Shown here: one piece after another, positions 14,162-62,008 of the stretch
How the letters are laid out: each line of letters opens with the position of its first letter
Position numbering within the stretch: position 1 is the stretch's first letter
Source of the DNA: Bacillota bacterium
Lineage (GTDB): Bacteria; Bacillota_I; Bacilli_A; RF39; UBA660
Direction of reading: 5' to 3'
Length of the DNA: 64,000 nucleotides
Assembly (NCBI GenBank): GCA_015059365.1
Contig: SVAO01000003.1
Coordinates: 3,682-67,681 of the forward strand
Translations under genes and position numbers: made by a program
Notes under the pieces: model-generated
The model's input: only the letters and a program-made list of their open reading frames with translations
Told to the model about the DNA's origin: nothing
The model's database searches: none

Positions 14162-16369
14162 TTAATTCCTTATTTTAGACAAATACCAAGATAAATCTTG
14201 TTCATCAAAAATATTTATTCTAACTGAATTAATCCCCATTTCATAGTAATCATTAATATAATTATCTATTCTTGGCTGATAATTGTATATATACATTAAA
14301 CCATTTTTTTCTTTAACCGGATAATAATGATTAATTCGATCCACAAGATATAAAAAATTTCTTTGATATAGAGAATTTAGACTAAATTTACTAATCATCA
14401 TTTCTTCTCTACCATAAACAACAACTTCCAAATTAGGTTTTTTTAAATATCTATCTTTATATGATGTTATGATATCTTTTATCTCTGATTTTGTCAATTC
14501 ATAAGATAACGTTACCTTTTCTAAACCTACACTATGAAGGAATGCAACTGCATAAGAATTAAAAACATTTAAAGAAAAATCTCCTACCTTCTTATTTGTA
14601 TAACTTAAACTCCCTAATTCTCCTATCATTAATGGATAATTGAAATTATACATATCATAATTTACTCTTGGAACTTTAAATATTAAACGACTATCATTAT
14701 TCTTAAATAAAGCTACATCATCACTATAAATATAGTCAAAATTATGCTTTTTAATTTTATCATAAAACTTACTATCTTCTAATAAGACGTTTAACTCTCT
14801 ACTCTCTAAAAAATCAGGAACATCTATATTATAGCTATCTTTTAAATAATTTGTTTTATAAATTCTTAAATTTAATAATTGTTCAACTGCATTTCTTCTA
14901 ATTTCATTTAAATCTCTATTATTAACATATATATTTTCATCTTTAATAATCTCTAGTTTTTCTAAAGCAAAAGGTGTATCACCTAATTTATTTATTTGTT
15001 TTTCTATTTTATCATTATCAAGCGGAGCATTATTTGCTTCTTGCACAGAAATACCAGTAATAGAAATATTATTTTTACCATCGCTCAAATTTAAATATAA
15101 AGGTTTATTTGCTTGCAAAATTATTTTTCCTGTGATTGCAATTTTTTTAGAAATTTTATTTATTTTATCTTTTAATAATTTAATTTGTTTAATATCAGTA
15201 GTTTTTACTACTTTGCTATCACTCTTAATAGTTTTTATTTTTTCATTCAAGAAAATAGTAACTGTATCACCTCTTTTAGCACTATTAACTTTTTCTTTAT
15301 TGCGATAAATATTAGTAACTACACATCCTATATCATAATCAATAATTCTTATGCCATCACCAATATTCAATTCATCTAAAAGTTTAATTGTTAATTTATT
15401 TTTATTATATTCTATAACTTTAGCAATCTCTATCCCCATATGATTTGGTCTAAAACTATTAGTTATATTATTATTTAACTCATTAAATAAAAATCCACAA
15501 GTAAATTCTCTATTAAATATTTTCTTAAGTTCTGTTAAATAATGATCATCAATAAAAACTTTACCCGTCTCATAATATGAATCAATGGCTTTACGATACA
15601 AAGACACAACAAGATAAACATATTCTGGTCGCTTCATTCTTCCTTCTATTTTAAAACTATCTATTCCACTTTCAATCAAATCTTGAATATGTTCCAAAGT
15701 ACACAAATCTTTCATACTCAAAACATAATTTTCATGATTTAATTTTTTGTTATCACTTGATAACAATTGGTATGGTAAACGACATGTGCCTGCACATGCT
15801 CCCCTGTTTCCACTACGACCACCAATTAAACTACTCATCAAACATTGCCCAGAATAACTTACACATAAAGCCCCATGTACAAATAGTTCTAATTCAATAT
15901 TCGTATTCATTCTGATGTTTTTTACTAAACCAATATCTGTTTCTCGAGCCAAAACCACTCTTTTTAATCCCAATTTTTCACAAAACTTAACGCCTTCTAA
16001 ATTATGGATGTGCAATTGGGTGGATGCATGAATTTCTAATTTTGGATACAATTTACGGGCTAAATCAATCATTCCTAGATCCTGCATAATAACCGCATCA
16101 ACATTATTTCTATGTAAAAAATCTATAAATTCAATAAACGTAGGAACTTCATGTTCCTTAATTAATGTATTAACAGTAATATAAACTTTTACTCCATATA
16201 TATGGCAAGTTTTTATCAACTCTTTAATTTCATCATTTGAAAAATTTGGAGCAAATTGTCGTGCTCCAAACATATATCCACCTAAATAAACAGCATCACA
16301 CCCTGCATTAATTGCTGCATTTAGTGATTCAATCGAACCAACAGGTGCTAATAACTCTACTTTTTTCAT
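14162..16369 (-). CDS. U32 family protein, RlhA-like (23S rRNA hydroxylation) with C-terminal extension
   Basis: ELLAPVG, HASTQ, FVHGALCVSYSGQC, NRGACAGTCR and KIEGRMK; start reassigned to MKKVELL. Confidence 0.85.
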   Translation of the reverse strand: MKKVELLAPVGSIESLNAAINAGCDAVYLGGYMFGARQFAPNFSNDEIKELIKTCHIYGVKVYITVNTLIKEHEVPTFIEFIDFLHRNNVDAVIMQDLGMIDLARKLYPKLEIHASTQLHIHNLEGVKFCEKLGLKRVVLARETDIGLVKNIRMNTNIELELFVHGALCVSYSGQCLMSSLIGGRSGNRGACAGTCRLPYQLLSSDNKKLNHENYVLSMKDLCTLEHIQDLIESGIDSFKIEGRMKRPEYVYLVVSLYRKAIDSYYETGKVFIDDHYLTELKKIFNREFTCGFLFNELNNNITNSFRPNHMGIEIAKVIEYNKNKLTIKLLDELNIGDGIRIIDYDIGCVVTNIYRNKEKVNSAKRGDTVTIFLNEKIKTIKSDSKVVKTTDIKQIKLLKDKINKISKKIAITGKIILQANKPLYLNLSDGKNNISITGISVQEANNAPLDNDKIEKQINKLGDTPFALEKLEIIKDENIYVNNRDLNEIRRNAVEQLLNLRIYKTNYLKDSYNIDVPDFLESRELNVLLEDSKFYDKIKKHNFDYIYSDDVALFKNNDSRLIFKVPRVNYDMYNFNYPLMIGELGSLSYTNKKVGDFSLNVFNSYAVAFLHSVGLEKVTLSYELTKSEIKDIITSYKDRYLKKPNLEVVVYGREEMMISKFSLNSLYQRNFLYLVDRINHYYPVKEKNGLMYIYNYQPRIDNYINDYYEMGINSVRINIFDEQDLSWYLSKIRN

Positions 16370-16370
16370 A

Positions 16371-16742
16371 TTAACTACCCAAACAGTCACACAAATCAGC
16401 TTCTGTATAATTATAAGTATACTGATTTATACTCTCATCAAAATTAATTTTAATGCAACCGTTTAACTCCTTTTTAGTTTTTGGATTTACAATATCCTTA
16501 TTTTCTAACAATCCCGATTTTTTTAATTCTTCCAAAGTTAAAATATAACACTTATCTACCTTATTTATATTCGTAGTTCCCCATGAACGTGCAATATTCT
16601 CAATTGAATCTATTTGTTTATCTAATAAATTTTGTGACGATGCAGAAAAAGCACTCTTTAATACTGGAAAACAAATTAATGAAATTACCCCTAAAATAAT
16701 AACAATCGCTAATAATTCAACTAACGTAAACCCTCGTTTCAT
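16371..16742 (-). CDS. type IV (pre)pilin
   Basis: Class III signal MKRG/FTLVE followed by a hydrophobic helix. Confidence 0.88.
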   Translation of the reverse strand: MKRGFTLVELLAIVIILGVISLICFPVLKSAFSASSQNLLDKQIDSIENIARSWGTTNINKVDKCYILTLEELKKSGLLENKDIVNPKTKKELNGCIKINFDESINQYTYNYTEADLCDCLGS

Positions 16743-19021: not shown

Positions 19022-20017
19022 CTATTTACGATTAACAAAATTATATGAATCTCTGCACATATCTTCTATATTTTTTTCTGCTTGCCAATTTAATTTTTCT
19101 TTCGCATAACTAGGATCAGCATAACATGCATCTATATCCCCAGGACGTCTATCACAGATTTCATATGGAACATCAACTTTATTGACTTTTGAAAAAGTAT
19201 TAACTAATTCTAACACACTAAAACCATGTCCTGTTCCTAAATTATAAAAATCTATTCCATTATCCTTATCAATTTTTTCTAAAGCTTTCAAGTGTCCTAA
19301 AGCAAGATCAACTACATGAATATAATCTCTAACTCCCGTACCATCTACGGTATCATAGTCATTACCAAATATATTTAATTTTTGATATTCACCAGTAGCA
19401 ACTTTTATAATATAAGGCATTAAATTGTTAGGAATATCATTAGGATTTTCACCGATTAAGCCACTACTATGTGCACCAATTGGATTAAAGTATCTTAACA
19501 CTGCAATACTCCAATCCTTATCTGAAACATATATATCCCTTAAAATATTTTCAATCATTAATTTTGTTGCACCATATGGATTAGTAGTAGATAACGGAAA
19601 ATCTTCCTTTATAGGTAAACTCTTTGGTTTTCCATATACCGTAGCACTTGATGAAAAAACTAATTTTTTACAATTATACTCACCCATCACTTCCAATAAT
19701 GATAGCGTTGAATCTATATTATTACGATAATATTTTAGTGGAACCCTAACAGATTCACCAACAGCTTTTAATCCAGCAAAATGAATTACCGCATCAATAT
19801 TATTATCAGTAAATATTTGTCTTAAGATTTGTTTATCACAAACATCACCTTCATAAAAAGTAATTTCTTTACCTGTTATCTCTTTTATCTTATCTAATAC
19901 TTCAGGTTTAGAATTTATAAAATTGTCAATACAAACAACATCATAATTGTTATCTAATAATTCTACTATGGTATGAGAACCAATATATCCAGTTCCACCA
20001 GTCACTAACACTTTCAT
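19022..20017 (-). CDS. galE: UDP-glucose 4-epimerase
   Basis: GGTGYIGSH, HFAGLKAVGES, YGATK and RDYIHVVDLA. Confidence 0.96.
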   Translation of the reverse strand: MKVLVTGGTGYIGSHTIVELLDNNYDVVCIDNFINSKPEVLDKIKEITGKEITFYEGDVCDKQILRQIFTDNNIDAVIHFAGLKAVGESVRVPLKYYRNNIDSTLSLLEVMGEYNCKKLVFSSSATVYGKPKSLPIKEDFPLSTTNPYGATKLMIENILRDIYVSDKDWSIAVLRYFNPIGAHSSGLIGENPNDIPNNLMPYIIKVATGEYQKLNIFGNDYDTVDGTGVRDYIHVVDLALGHLKALEKIDKDNGIDFYNLGTGHGFSVLELVNTFSKVNKVDVPYEICDRRPGDIDACYADPSYAKEKLNWQAEKNIEDMCRDSYNFVNRK

Positions 20018-20075
20018 ATTTTCACCTCTATTTTATTATACCACGTATAACAAAAAAAGAGATTAAAAATCTCTT

Positions 20076-20756
20076 TCATCTAGGTAAAACCTCATATCCT
20101 GCTGTACCATTTATATGATTAATTACTTCAATTACATCTCTGTTATTAATCTTTCCATCCCTGGTAGTATCTGCTTGTTCAATATTAATAGAAACTTCAT
20201 ATCCTGATAAGTAATCTAAATACATTTGAACATCAGCTTCATCAACAACGCCGTCATCGTTTGCATCTCCACATCCTAATACTGAACTTACAGCAGTAGC
20301 ATCTGCAGAATAAGTAACTTTGTAATTTCCTACTACCATTACAGTTTTATCAGAATAAGTTAATGAATAACTACCTACAGTTGCATTTTTTTCTTCAGTA
20401 GATTTTTTTGCCACAGCACCATCAACTATTACAATTGTTCCTTTTTTAGGATGATCACCTTTTGTTTCTACAACTATTTTGTTTTCTTCATTACAAGTAT
20501 TGCCTGTTAAACATAAATTTCCATCAGAATCAATTTTATATGTACCATCTTCTACTACTTTTTGTTGAAGTCTAGCTGTTGCTATTGCAGTTTCTACCGC
20601 AGAAGCGTAATTTTCCGCACTCCTTTTAGCTGCTTCTTTTTGAGTATTTCCTATTAAATCCATAATTATTGGAGTTGCTATCAATGCTACTATAGCCAAC
20701 ACTACTATAACTGCCAATAACTCGATTAGTGTAAACGCCTTTTTCTTTTTCTTCAT
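20076..20756 (-). CDS. type IV pilin with C-terminal dockerin-like domain
   Basis: KKA/FTLIE prepilin motif; C-terminal GDANDDGVVDEAD..ADTTRDGKINNRD duplicated Ca-loop plus helix; start reassigned to MKKKKK. Confidence 0.85.
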   Translation of the reverse strand: MKKKKKAFTLIELLAVIVVLAIVALIATPIIMDLIGNTQKEAAKRSAENYASAVETAIATARLQQKVVEDGTYKIDSDGNLCLTGNTCNEENKIVVETKGDHPKKGTIVIVDGAVAKKSTEEKNATVGSYSLTYSDKTVMVVGNYKVTYSADATAVSSVLGCGDANDDGVVDEADVQMYLDYLSGYEVSINIEQADTTRDGKINNRDVIEVINHINGTAGYEVLPR

Positions 20757-20781
20757 TCTATCACTCCTATCATACAAGAAT

Positions 20782-20810
20782 ATTGTATTTTAATAAACTT
20801 GATTTGTCAA
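20782..20810 (-). promoter_or_regulatory. promoter of the pilin-dockerin gene
   Basis: TTGACA-N17-TACAAT. Confidence 0.75.
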
Positions 20811-59653: not shown

Positions 59654-59776
59654 TCTAATTCACCTCTATTTTTATTATAGATTATTTCAAAACAAAAATA
59701 TAGTATTTATCACAAATTTAACACAATAATATTTATTTTTAATAAAATTATGTTATAATCATATTAGGTGATTTAT

Positions 59777-62008
59777 ATGAAAATAAAAAAATTTTTACTT
59801 ATACTACTTGTTTTTTTAGGAGTTTGTTTTATCAATACCGATAATATCTATGCGTTGAAGGGTGACGCAAATAAAGATGGTAAAATAGATTGTGCTGATT
59901 ACTCCACATTAAAAAAATTTGTGAATGGTACAAATATAGAAATTAGTAAAACTAACGCTGATGTTAATTCCGATGGAATAGTAAATCAAAAAGATTTTGA
60001 AGATTGGGAAACAAGAATGGGCATTATTTGTAGACCTGCTACTGAACAAGATTTTTTAGGAGAGTTAACTTGTGGAGAGACAGATTTTAAATTTCATCAA
60101 TCTTTACCTAAATTCACAGCAACAATTTACGACGTGCTAAAAATTGCCACACCAATTATTGTAATTGTTACTGGCATGATAGATTTATTAAAAGCTGTAA
60201 CATCACAAAAAGAAGATGAAATCAAAAAAGCACAACAAAAATTTGTCAGAAGACTTATCGCTGGTGCTATTGTATTCTTAGTTTTTGTAATACTAGAAAT
60301 CTTTATCAATATAATTGCAGAAGCAGATGACTCAAATAATGCAATGGATTGTGTAAATACTTTCTTACACGGTCCATCATATTGCGGAGGAAACGGAGAT
60401 GCAAACAACGATAAAAAAGTCGATTATAGAGACTTAAACTTTATGCTTCTTTATTTTAATAAAATCGGGGAAATCGAAAACTTTAATAAAAACAATGCAA
60501 ACATAAATTGTAGTAGTAATGGATTTGACTCTAATGATGTCAATGTGTTATGGGAAAAACTAAGTAAGAATGGAAGCAAAAAAATAGGAGATGCTAATAA
60601 TGATGGTATAGTCGATCACAGAGACGTTGAAACTATAGAGAATTATTTTTTAAATCGTGTATCAGCACACGAAAATAATACTATTAATTTAGTAAATGCC
60701 GACATGAATAACAATTATTCTGTTAATGAGGACGATTTAAACGCCTTAAGATCTTTAATTACAGATAAAATTTATAATGATAATCAGAATATAGGTGACG
60801 TTAACTCCGATGGTAAAATTAATTATATAGATTTAGACATTTTAATACAAAATATTATAGGGAACGATAAAAGTTACTCTTATAATAGCTCAAATTCGGA
60901 TTTAAATGGAGACGCAAAAGTTACTGAAGAAGATATAGAATATCTATTTGAATTAATTGCTGACTCTGCTGTACGAGGTGATTTCGACGGGGATAAACAA
61001 ATTACAAAAAACGATTGTGACCTTTGGAACAGATATTCCCACAAACACGTATTTACATATTACGATATACAATTTTTATACAAAGTTATTAAAGATGGAA
61101 CAGCAAATGAAACATATAAAGGTGGGGAAACTTGGGGAACTGATATAAATGGTGATGGTACAATTAATATGGATGACTACTATGCAATATTAATTTTTAA
61201 CAAGCATACTGCAGATATGGATTTTAACGGAAAAATTAATGACAATGATAAAGATATTTTCTTTGCATCATCAGGTAGTGTTTGCGAACCTGATATTGAT
61301 GAATCAAACATAACATTCTCTTATGAATACAACAAAGATAATGCTTCAATGCCATATGGTCTATTCACTCCATCTAGTGCCTCTAATTCAAACAAAAGTG
61401 CACTTATTGTTTGGTTTCATGGTTATGGTGAAGACGGGAAAAGTGCATCAGCCCTAAGAAATAGTGGCTTTCTAAATATCCTAGAATCTGACTGGAAAAA
61501 CTGGGGATTTGATGGATTTAACGCATACGTATTATGTCCTCATTTACAAACTGGTAGATGGGAAAATGGCAGCAATCCAGACAACTTTAAAAAATTATTA
61601 GAAAAAATAAAAAAAGAAAAAAATATAGATACTAACAAGATCGTTTTAATCGGTCATAGTAAAGGAAGCCAAGCTGTACAATATTATGGAAATCTGAGTA
61701 ATTCATATTCAGCTTTAGTTGCATTAAGTGGATATGTTGCAAACAGTACTGATTTAAGTAAAATTGATAAAAACAAAGTTCTAGGATATACAGGAACAAA
61801 TGATGAGCAGAACACTGTAAATTATATGAAAAAAACTTTTGCAAATTACTTTAATATAATAAATTTACAGGGTGCAAATCATGGTGGTGTTGTAACAAAA
61901 GCTTTTGAGCAAGATAAAAATAATAATAATAAATCCGATCTAATAGAATGGATGTTAGCTGACAACAATAAGAAAAAAGAATTAGAAAAATTCATGTTAG
62001 CTCAGTAA
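59777..62008 (+). CDS. multi-dockerin protein with VirB2/TrbC-like membrane hairpin and C-terminal alpha/beta serine hydrolase
   Basis: Signal peptide; about 11 DxNxDG-type loops; two-TM hairpin aa ~113-184; WFHGYGE, GHSKG, GTND and ANHGG. Confidence 0.85.
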   Translation: MKIKKFLLILLVFLGVCFINTDNIYALKGDANKDGKIDCADYSTLKKFVNGTNIEISKTNADVNSDGIVNQKDFEDWETRMGIICRPATEQDFLGELTCGETDFKFHQSLPKFTATIYDVLKIATPIIVIVTGMIDLLKAVTSQKEDEIKKAQQKFVRRLIAGAIVFLVFVILEIFINIIAEADDSNNAMDCVNTFLHGPSYCGGNGDANNDKKVDYRDLNFMLLYFNKIGEIENFNKNNANINCSSNGFDSNDVNVLWEKLSKNGSKKIGDANNDGIVDHRDVETIENYFLNRVSAHENNTINLVNADMNNNYSVNEDDLNALRSLITDKIYNDNQNIGDVNSDGKINYIDLDILIQNIIGNDKSYSYNSSNSDLNGDAKVTEEDIEYLFELIADSAVRGDFDGDKQITKNDCDLWNRYSHKHVFTYYDIQFLYKVIKDGTANETYKGGETWGTDINGDGTINMDDYYAILIFNKHTADMDFNGKINDNDKDIFFASSGSVCEPDIDESNITFSYEYNKDNASMPYGLFTPSSASNSNKSALIVWFHGYGEDGKSASALRNSGFLNILESDWKNWGFDGFNAYVLCPHLQTGRWENGSNPDNFKKLLEKIKKEKNIDTNKIVLIGHSKGSQAVQYYGNLSNSYSALVALSGYVANSTDLSKIDKNKVLGYTGTNDEQNTVNYMKKTFANYFNIINLQGANHGGVVTKAFEQDKNNNNKSDLIEWMLADNNKKKELEKFMLAQ

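Follow-up and report, generated by a model that had tools for sequence, protein, structure and literature searches.

The stretch of DNA analysed here, referred to as the window, comprises 64,000 nucleotides of contig SVAO01000003.1 (positions 3,682 to 67,681; assembly GCA_015059365.1) from a Bacillota bacterium of the RF39 lineage. On its minus strand, at 20076..20756 with the stop codon counted in, it carries a gene for a 226-amino-acid protein, P0001, in which a type IV pilin is joined by a short linker to a C-terminal dockerin. This domain order is near certain; the Pfam families N_methyl and Dockerin_1 both match above their cut-offs. P0001 is probably a minor modular type IV pilin that displays a calcium-dependent docking module on pili. 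In the following, G000 is the genome that holds P0001, C-numbers are its contigs, and coordinates without a label refer to the window.

Architecture of P0001

The protein starts with a class III (prepilin) leader peptide, MKKKKKA (20736..20756, minus strand), which is predicted to be cleaved after Ala7 on the basis of hidden Markov model (HMM) matches and of the variation found at position -1 in the family. The junction reads MKKKKKA/FTLIE, with Ala at -1, Phe at +1 and Glu at +5, and the mature chain would begin with FTLIELLAVIVVLAIVALIATP. A first-pass annotation of this DNA, made from the sequence alone, had noticed the prepilin motif KKA/FTLIE with its Ala at -1, and the matches to N_methyl in Pfam (PF07963; 33.2 bits, cut-off 21.2) and to TIGR02532 in NCBIfam (29 bits, cut-off 16.3) bear it out. 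Ala is found at -1 in 23 of 119 homologs of the P0001 pilin family, where it is an ordinary variant.

The leader is followed by a hydrophobic α1-N helix, FTLIELLAVIVVLAIVALIATPIIM (aa 8-32; 20661..20735, minus strand), the presumed interface for filament assembly. It is here that pilins of known structure match: a phmmer search of the PDB sequences with P0001 revealed similarity of this helix to Streptococcus sanguinis PilE1 (8pfb), MshA and the geopilins. The rest of the pilin module (aa 33-150; 20307..20660, minus strand) contains a loop between Cys82 and Cys88, a conserved IDSDGNLC loop and a last strand motif in tandem. A linker, ADATAVSSVLGCG (aa 151-163; 20268..20306, minus strand), connects the pilin to the dockerin; it has a low predicted local distance difference test (pLDDT) score in the AlphaFold2 (AF2) model and no homology to other members of the pilin family. 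P0001 is thus built like a modular pilin, with a pilin module, a linker and a non-pilus domain that folds independently in the AF2 model. The architecture first proposed, a pilin body, a short linker and a C-terminal dockerin, holds, the HMMER scores for PF07963 and PF00404 (33.2 and 41.8 bits) both lying above cut-off.

The same protein is encoded on at least 23 metagenome contigs with unchanged neighbours, and the gene is identical at the nucleotide level on all six contigs that were compared. Samples in which the identical gene is present include JGI 3300029705, 3300024303, 3300022661 and 3300018878 as well as SRR7031497 and SRR7032240. A chance or artefactual origin of P0001 was rejected on the grounds of the Pfam E-values and of these identical copies in many metagenomes.

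Dockerin module

The dockerin (aa 164-217; 20106..20267, minus strand) consists of calcium loop 1, helix 1, a 10-residue connector, calcium loop 2 and helix 3. Its match to PF00404, over aa 163-216, reaches 41.8 bits with a cut-off of 22.9, and an E-value of 1.2e-10 indicates that it is not due to chance. The predicted calcium loops are DANDDGVVDEAD (aa 164-175; 20232-20267) and DTTRDGKINNRD (aa 196-207; 20136-20171), the second with Thr at position 3. The layout is that of dockerin type I, with two segments of about 22 residues, each formed by a 12-residue calcium loop and a helix.

In the phmmer search of the PDB, the C-terminus of P0001 matches the clostridial dockerins 6kg9 (E=3e-7) and CelS (1daq). 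In an AF2 model of aa 142-226, for which 27 dockerin homologs were used, the core reaches a pLDDT of 96-98, and when the model was compared to the PDB with Foldseek the 33 best matches were all dockerins; modelling with AlphaFold, which had been proposed as a check, has therefore returned a dockerin fold. The top match is CaDoc0917 of Clostridium acetobutylicum, with a template modelling (TM) score of 0.83-0.90, a root-mean-square deviation of 1.3-1.5 Å and about 40% identity. The two calcium-binding loop-helix repeats are shared with CaDoc0917 (6kg9, 6kgd, 6kgf) and with CelS of Clostridium thermocellum (1daq, 2mte). Differently from these clostridial type I dockerins, which are borne by a glycoside hydrolase, the P0001 dockerin is placed on a pilin; moreover, Thr occupies position 3 of its loop 2, it has an additional conserved GYExLP tail, its repeats differ from each other at positions 10 and 11, and its genome contains no scaffoldin.

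The C-terminal tail, TAGYEVLPR (20079..20105, minus strand), is modelled at a pLDDT of about 90. Its motif, G-[YFW]-E-x-L-P, is found in 23 of the 149 nearest dockerin proteins and seems to mark a dockerin subfamily. The nearest relatives of the P0001 dockerin (P0241-P0389) are mostly poly-dockerin proteins with 4-17 matched stretches, and some of them otherwise possess only a signal peptide. A word-indexed search with the dockerin region alone returned no protein besides P0001.

An expanded family of modular pilins

Database searches retrieved 1618 proteins that match P0001 over aa 1 to about 135 only, with identities of 42-65%. After about residue 135 these homologs diverge, and their lengths vary from 134 to 395 aa; none of the 120 best matches to the pilin module contains a dockerin. 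Reference genomes scanned with full-length P0001 gave no match. In four genomes of the same genus, 0.8-1.0 Mb in size, the module is present in 45 (G001), 44 (G004), 41 (G005) and 19 (G002) paralogs, which bear differing C-terminal modules, compared with 11 matches in G000. If 45 such genes encode about 350 aa each, they would, roughly estimated, take up as much as about 5% of the coding capacity of a 1-Mb genome. The alignments indicate that the pilin body of P0001 belongs to a large modular pilin family with swappable C-terminal modules.

Conservation in the N-terminal helix is high. By eye, about 21 of the 25 residues of the P0001 α1-N helix are alike in a plain 121-aa pilin of the same genome (G000:C6:70053), and a script counted 32 identical positions in the first 50 mature residues. 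When six modular pilins of G000 are added to the plain one, the seven share 31-37 of the first 50 mature residues with P0001; having a closely similar α1 helix, they could therefore co-assemble with it.

Two features of the pilin body deserve mention. The loop I-D-x-D-G-N-L(-C), at aa 75-80 (20517-20534), is conserved in the homologs; it may be a calcium-binding site within the pilin module, a possibility suggested by the fact that MAFFT kept aligning it with the calcium loops of the dockerin. Furthermore, the last strand motif of the pilin, present in single copy in the homologs, is duplicated in tandem in P0001 (VGSYSLTYS followed by VGNYKVTYS; 20307-20378), and this duplication may be the scar of a module fusion.

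Other pilin-dockerin fusions

The dockerin of P0001 alone was searched exhaustively with phmmer against 1.84 billion representatives, and the 150 nearest proteins were inspected. Among these, four further type IV pilins from metagenomes carry 2-9 dockerin loops (P0304, P0288, P0342 and P0275). Within the genus, pilins of about 266 aa with two C-terminal dockerins each are encoded by G001 (C8:43384-44235, minus strand) and by G004 (C1:72008-72859, plus strand). Their scaffold is different from that of P0001 and resembles G000:C3:8144, and the two fusions appear to be independent of P0001. The context could be read for three other pilin-dockerin genes, which stand alone among housekeeping genes. 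The pilin-dockerin fusion has arisen repeatedly, which argues for a function.

IPR002105 is the dockerin type I repeat. The architecture IPR012902-IPR002105(-IPR002105) is listed, without discussion, for 3 of the 1219 modular pilins in Dataset S1 of an InterPro-based survey published in 2021 (PMC8179133). No published discussion of a pilin-dockerin fusion was found in the literature, and the fusion can be described as catalogued and never characterised. Its novelty as first claimed was overestimated, since modular pilins are established and architectures with a pilin and dockerin repeats stand in a published supplementary table (PMC8179133).

Host genome and pilus machinery

G000 represents an uncultured lineage of gut Bacilli; it has a size of about 0.92 Mb in 13 contigs, is 84% complete and has a GC content of about 27%. 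The relatives of its RuvB, with 72-85% identity, belong to Clostridium sp. CAG:762 and CAG:914 and to metagenome-assembled genomes labelled 'uncultured Bacilli bacterium', which were recovered from gut samples of rabbits, of other animals and of the Hadza.

A pilus machinery locus lies at G000:C9:112.4-118 kb, with core genes at 112435-116895. It encodes a PilB-like ATPase (T2SSE, 428 bits), a PilC-like protein with two T2SSF domains (110 and 76 bits) and a PilD-like prepilin peptidase with a GGGDIK motif, and two minor-pilin-like genes are found beside them. With its prepilin peptidase, its PilB-type ATPase and its platform protein of the PilC type, G000 should in principle be able to process and polymerise P0001. 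Prepilin N-termini recognised by Pfam number 18 in this genome; scanning for the motif allowed 17 pilin genes to be read out, P0001 included. Besides the PilBCD-type locus on C9, a Tad/Flp-like locus (G000:C7:81833-87792) codes for a CpaF-like ATPase and two TadB/C-like membrane proteins.

Other dockerin proteins and candidate sockets

Four dockerin proteins are encoded by G000, namely P0001, a 290-aa surface protein, a 595-aa SagB-like glucosaminidase and a 746-aa poly-dockerin esterase; none of them is a plant-polysaccharide enzyme. The cellulosome and amylosome setting evoked by the first-pass annotation does not fit these data, and a role of P0001 as a component of either complex was rejected, as there is neither a scaffoldin nor a dockerin-bearing plant-polysaccharide enzyme.

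The dockerin of the 290-aa surface protein (G000:C12:60359-61267) is the closest paralog of the P0001 dockerin, with 48% amino acid identity and a shared GCGD start and LP tail. This protein has a non-pilin, TasA/SipW-like leader, MRRTRSRQMTTIAIIMVAVVGMGIGFAAFATNLTINSG, and the same dockerin subtype is thus mounted on two different scaffolds. At the DNA level the two dockerins are 70% identical over 145 nucleotides, so their split is old; a recent exchange of the module between them was rejected on the same ground. The 746-aa protein is the second dockerin protein of the window (59768..62008, plus strand), with a PF00404 score of 108 bits over four stretches and weak hits to esterase families. 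It begins with a signal peptide and a first dockerin, continues with a hydrophobic hairpin and several further dockerin repeats, and ends in an alpha/beta-hydrolase.

A cohesin recognised by Pfam is present in 19 of 61 relatives, and in at least 14 of them its gene directly follows the one for a SagB-like hydrolase with a dockerin. The cohesin protein of these relatives is formed by a signal peptide, the cohesin, a cadherin-like domain, a transmembrane anchor and a Lys-rich tail. The conserved gene order suggests that the hydrolase-dockerin and the cohesin protein constitute a plug-and-socket cassette of the lineage. The cassette is retained in G000 and in its four closest congeners; in G000 (C9:128311-131558) the gene for the SagB-like peptidoglycan glucosaminidase-dockerin is followed, with an overlap of 4 base pairs, by that for P0121. 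The N-domain of P0121 gave no cohesin signal in searches with Pfam, with the lineage HMM or with PDB profiles. HHalign aligns it to the relatives' cohesins with a probability of 95.6% and E=1e-8, with an 11-residue deletion. HHalign and synteny together suggest that this domain is derived from a cohesin, although it is not demonstrably a cohesin itself.

This arrangement resembles that of NagH and NagJ of Clostridium perfringens (2ozn), whose dockerins are likewise non-cellulosomal and borne by proteins that have nothing to do with plant cell-wall breakdown; the lineage of G000 similarly pairs a peptidoglycan hydrolase-dockerin with a membrane-anchored cohesin protein. NagH/NagJ-type pairs join secreted enzymes to each other, whereas the P0001 dockerin is carried by a probable filament subunit. 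Among the fold matches of the latter, the 2ozn dockerin is a weak one, at rank 33.

A further gene of G000 (C13:62847-63905), found after a sortase-like gene, is interrupted by two frameshifts. It specifies first a signal peptide, then a domain whose sequence pattern recalls cohesins, then cadherin-like repeats and finally a transmembrane anchor. The domain with the cohesin-like pattern gives E=0.05 in hhalign and no match in the PDB, and the search for orthologs within the genus was negative; the gene may have decayed to a pseudogene or may reflect an error of the assembly.

Comparison with known modular pilins

PilB and PilC of S. sanguinis (Raynaud et al. 2021, PMC8179133), which become incorporated into the pili of that species, have established the concept of a modular pilin whose adhesive part is displayed on the pilus. 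PilB, with a von Willebrand factor A (vWA) module, and PilC, with a lectin module, share with P0001 the succession of class III leader, pilin module, linker and C-terminal module; the host is likewise monoderm, and the module is predicted to be metal-binding and adhesive. Conversely, the module of P0001 is a dockerin of 55-65 residues instead of a vWA or lectin domain, which implies a dedicated bacterial partner domain, a cohesin, as the ligand and not host proteins or glycans as for PilB and PilC. The P0001 scaffold belongs to a different family, with up to 45 paralogs per genome, and its gene stands alone, outside any pil operon.

According to the passages on CofB in PMC8179133, this minor pilin of enterotoxigenic Escherichia coli has, as P0001 does, an extra C-terminal part; that of CofB serves as the adaptor by which the secreted protein CofJ is recruited to the pilus. 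The CofB domains, a beta-repeat and a beta-sandwich, are unrelated to the dockerin, and its pili are type IVb pili of a diderm host. Cellulolytic ruminococci are gut Firmicutes whose extracellular proteome can contain type IV pili as well as dockerin proteins, as in Ruminococcus flavefaciens 007 (PMC3672088); in that organism pili and cellulosome parts are separate proteins, whereas P0001 unites dockerin and pilin in one chain, in a genome with no cellulosome.

Proposed function and alternative explanations

In the mechanism that we favour, the class III leader of P0001 would be removed by the prepilin peptidase of G000, and the hydrophobic α1 helix would allow the protein to be polymerised by the PilB/PilC-type machinery alongside pilins with a closely similar helix, among them the plain 121-aa candidate major pilin. 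The calcium-binding dockerin, of about 65 residues and carried on the 13-residue linker, would be held outside the filament, in which the dockerin-pilin would most likely be of low abundance or located at the tip. There the dockerin would act as a protein-protein plug, by which pili attach to a cohesin-type socket or bring in a protein that carries one. Candidates for this socket are a self-encoded cohesin-derived anchor protein, a protein encoded in the missing 16% of the genome and a protein of another organism. The most economical partner would be the lineage's family of membrane-anchored surface proteins of the P0121 type (signal peptide, cohesin or cohesin-derived N-domain, cadherin-like domain and transmembrane anchor), encoded beside the dockerin-tagged peptidoglycan hydrolase; binding to such an anchored partner would result in pilus-mediated cell-cell or cell-matrix attachment. 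P0001 would thus be one cassette of a lineage-wide 'plug-and-display' strategy, with one pilin scaffold and many alternative C-terminal modules. We regard incorporation of P0001 into pili as rather probable, and put the chances that its dockerin binds a cohesin-type domain at about even.

Several observations weigh against this proposal. No solved relative of the globular pilin domain emerged from the PDB search. The genome-wide search for a cohesin that the first-pass annotation had suggested as a check came out negative in the 84%-complete G000, both with PF00963, even at E<=1, and with lineage-specific cohesin HMMs; of the idea of a pilus displaying a cohesin-binding module, the architecture stands, while cohesin binding is deduced from family membership. 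No cohesin is encoded within 8-10 kb of the three other pilin-dockerin genes. As for P0121, its N-domain is 11-15 residues shorter than the relatives' cohesins, the AF2 model (pLDDT 95.9) is a generic Ig-like sandwich, and none of its top 50 fold matches in the PDB is a cohesin. The P0001 dockerin is only 21% identical to that of the SagB-like hydrolase, and the two need therefore not share a socket. Finally, the survey of non-cellulosomal dockerins by Peer et al. in 2009 is said to include many for which no partner is known.

The lack of a canonical cohesin in G000 and in its four closest congeners, which nevertheless have 1-7 dockerin matches each, would be explained if dockerin pili plugged into the cohesins of other community members, either the scaffoldins of cellulosomes and amylosomes or other surface cohesins, so that the cell attached to, or rode on, polysaccharide degraders or host cells and not its kin. 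Genomes of 0.8-1.1 Mb suggest dependence on others, the relatives come from herbivore and human gut metagenomes, the home of cohesin-rich bacteria, and the closest solved dockerins are clostridial type I, with 40% identity. We consider this explanation unlikely all the same. Cohesin-dockerin pairs are usually species-specific, a foreign partner has no direct evidence in its favour, and a cohesin-type cassette exists within the lineage; the dockerin repeats, which differ at the recognition positions 10/11 (E-A versus N-R), give no clue to a partner. The absence of a detectable cohesin in G000 is also compatible with a dockerin that works independently of cohesins, as a small calcium-dependent stabilising or adhesive domain that binds another ligand or simply makes the end of the pilin rigid, in the manner of many orphan non-cellulosomal dockerins. 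Proteins that consist of repeated dockerins, with as many as 17 matched stretches, and lack any further domain are frequent among the closest relatives of the P0001 dockerin, in contrast to dockerins that tag enzymes, and an adhesin role has been suggested for giant proteins that contain non-cellulosomal dockerins (PMC10066038). Such a role is unlikely as well: the fold and both calcium loops closely match those of cohesin-binding type I dockerins, and cohesins are present in a third of the relatives, paired with dockerin genes.

A different objection concerns the filament itself: P0001 could be a membrane-held dockerin anchor retained by α1, part of a short pseudopilus or an exported substrate of the pilus machinery. 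Indeed, its gene is isolated between ruvB and galE, far from the machinery locus; this locus is similar to those for competence (Com) and type II secretion (T2SS), no PilMNO genes were seen beside it, and P0001 has weak NCBIfam hits to the pseudopilins ComGC and GspG. On the other hand, pilin genes of this lineage generally occur singly and scattered, the α1-N helix resembles those of the plain 121-aa pilin and of the six modular pilins (31-37 of the first 50 mature residues), and the modular pilins of S. sanguinis do enter pili (PMC8179133). A non-filament role thus appears very unlikely, and a minor pilin that displays its dockerin on pili is the explanation that we prefer.

Type IV pili and cohesin-dockerin assemblies are among the best-studied surface systems of Firmicutes and have so far been handled separately; the fusion would join both, equipping a retractile or extensible filament with a high-affinity, specific plug. 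Dockerin pili could explain how gut bacteria with very small genomes attach to kin, matrix or other microbes, and a partner on another cell would raise the significance of P0001. In the boldest version, a gut lineage with a reduced genome of about 1 Mb would use its pili as a programmable docking device, plugging into cohesins on other cells, the scaffoldins of other species included. This is a speculative proposal to which we assign a low likelihood; if true, pili would form a physical link between a dependent bacterium and a partner that degrades polysaccharides, and alternative specificities would come from the dozens of sister pilins equipped with other modules. The lineage offers a natural 'plug-and-display' library, useful for studies of adhesin diversification and for engineered pilus display.

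Transcription signals and neighbouring genes

The P0001 gene sits between ruvB and galE, away from the pilus machinery locus. In the relatives, queA and not a pilin gene comes after ruvB; the order ruvB-pilin-galE is therefore species-specific, and conservation of the locus across the relatives was rejected. The end of ruvB lies 57 nucleotides upstream of P0001, with no terminator between the two genes.

Both transcription signals proposed by the first-pass annotation are present. The sigma-70-type promoter, TTGACA-17 nt-TACAAT (20782..20810, minus strand), agrees with the consensus at 11 of 12 positions and overlaps the end of ruvB, although promoter-like sites are not rarer than expected by chance in such AT-rich DNA (3 found, 4.5 expected). 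A ribosome-binding site, AGGAG (20764..20768, minus strand), is read from the sequence 7 nucleotides 5' of the ATG at 20756, which is considered the start codon because the TTG at 20777 coincides with the predicted transcription start. At the 3' end, a terminator-like hairpin with a 10-bp stem, a 3-nucleotide loop and a run of seven U (20055..20077, minus strand) overlaps the stop codon; it was not called by the terminator scan because its stem has only two G-C pairs. The folded 51-nucleotide stretch at this end, a second downstream hairpin included, has a free energy of -10.7 kcal/mol and a z-score of -2.5. Directly after the pilin terminator, galE has an apparent extended -10 promoter of its own (TGGTATAAT; 20017-20060), and the second hairpin, which overlaps it, is probably spurious. 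Monocistronic transcription of P0001, as first described, is plausible.

A gene for a plain type IV pilin from another pilin class (16371..16742, minus strand; 123 aa, N_methyl 22.6 bits) is located 3.3 kb downstream of P0001. It overlaps the start of a gene for a U32-family, collagenase-like peptidase (14162-16390, minus strand).

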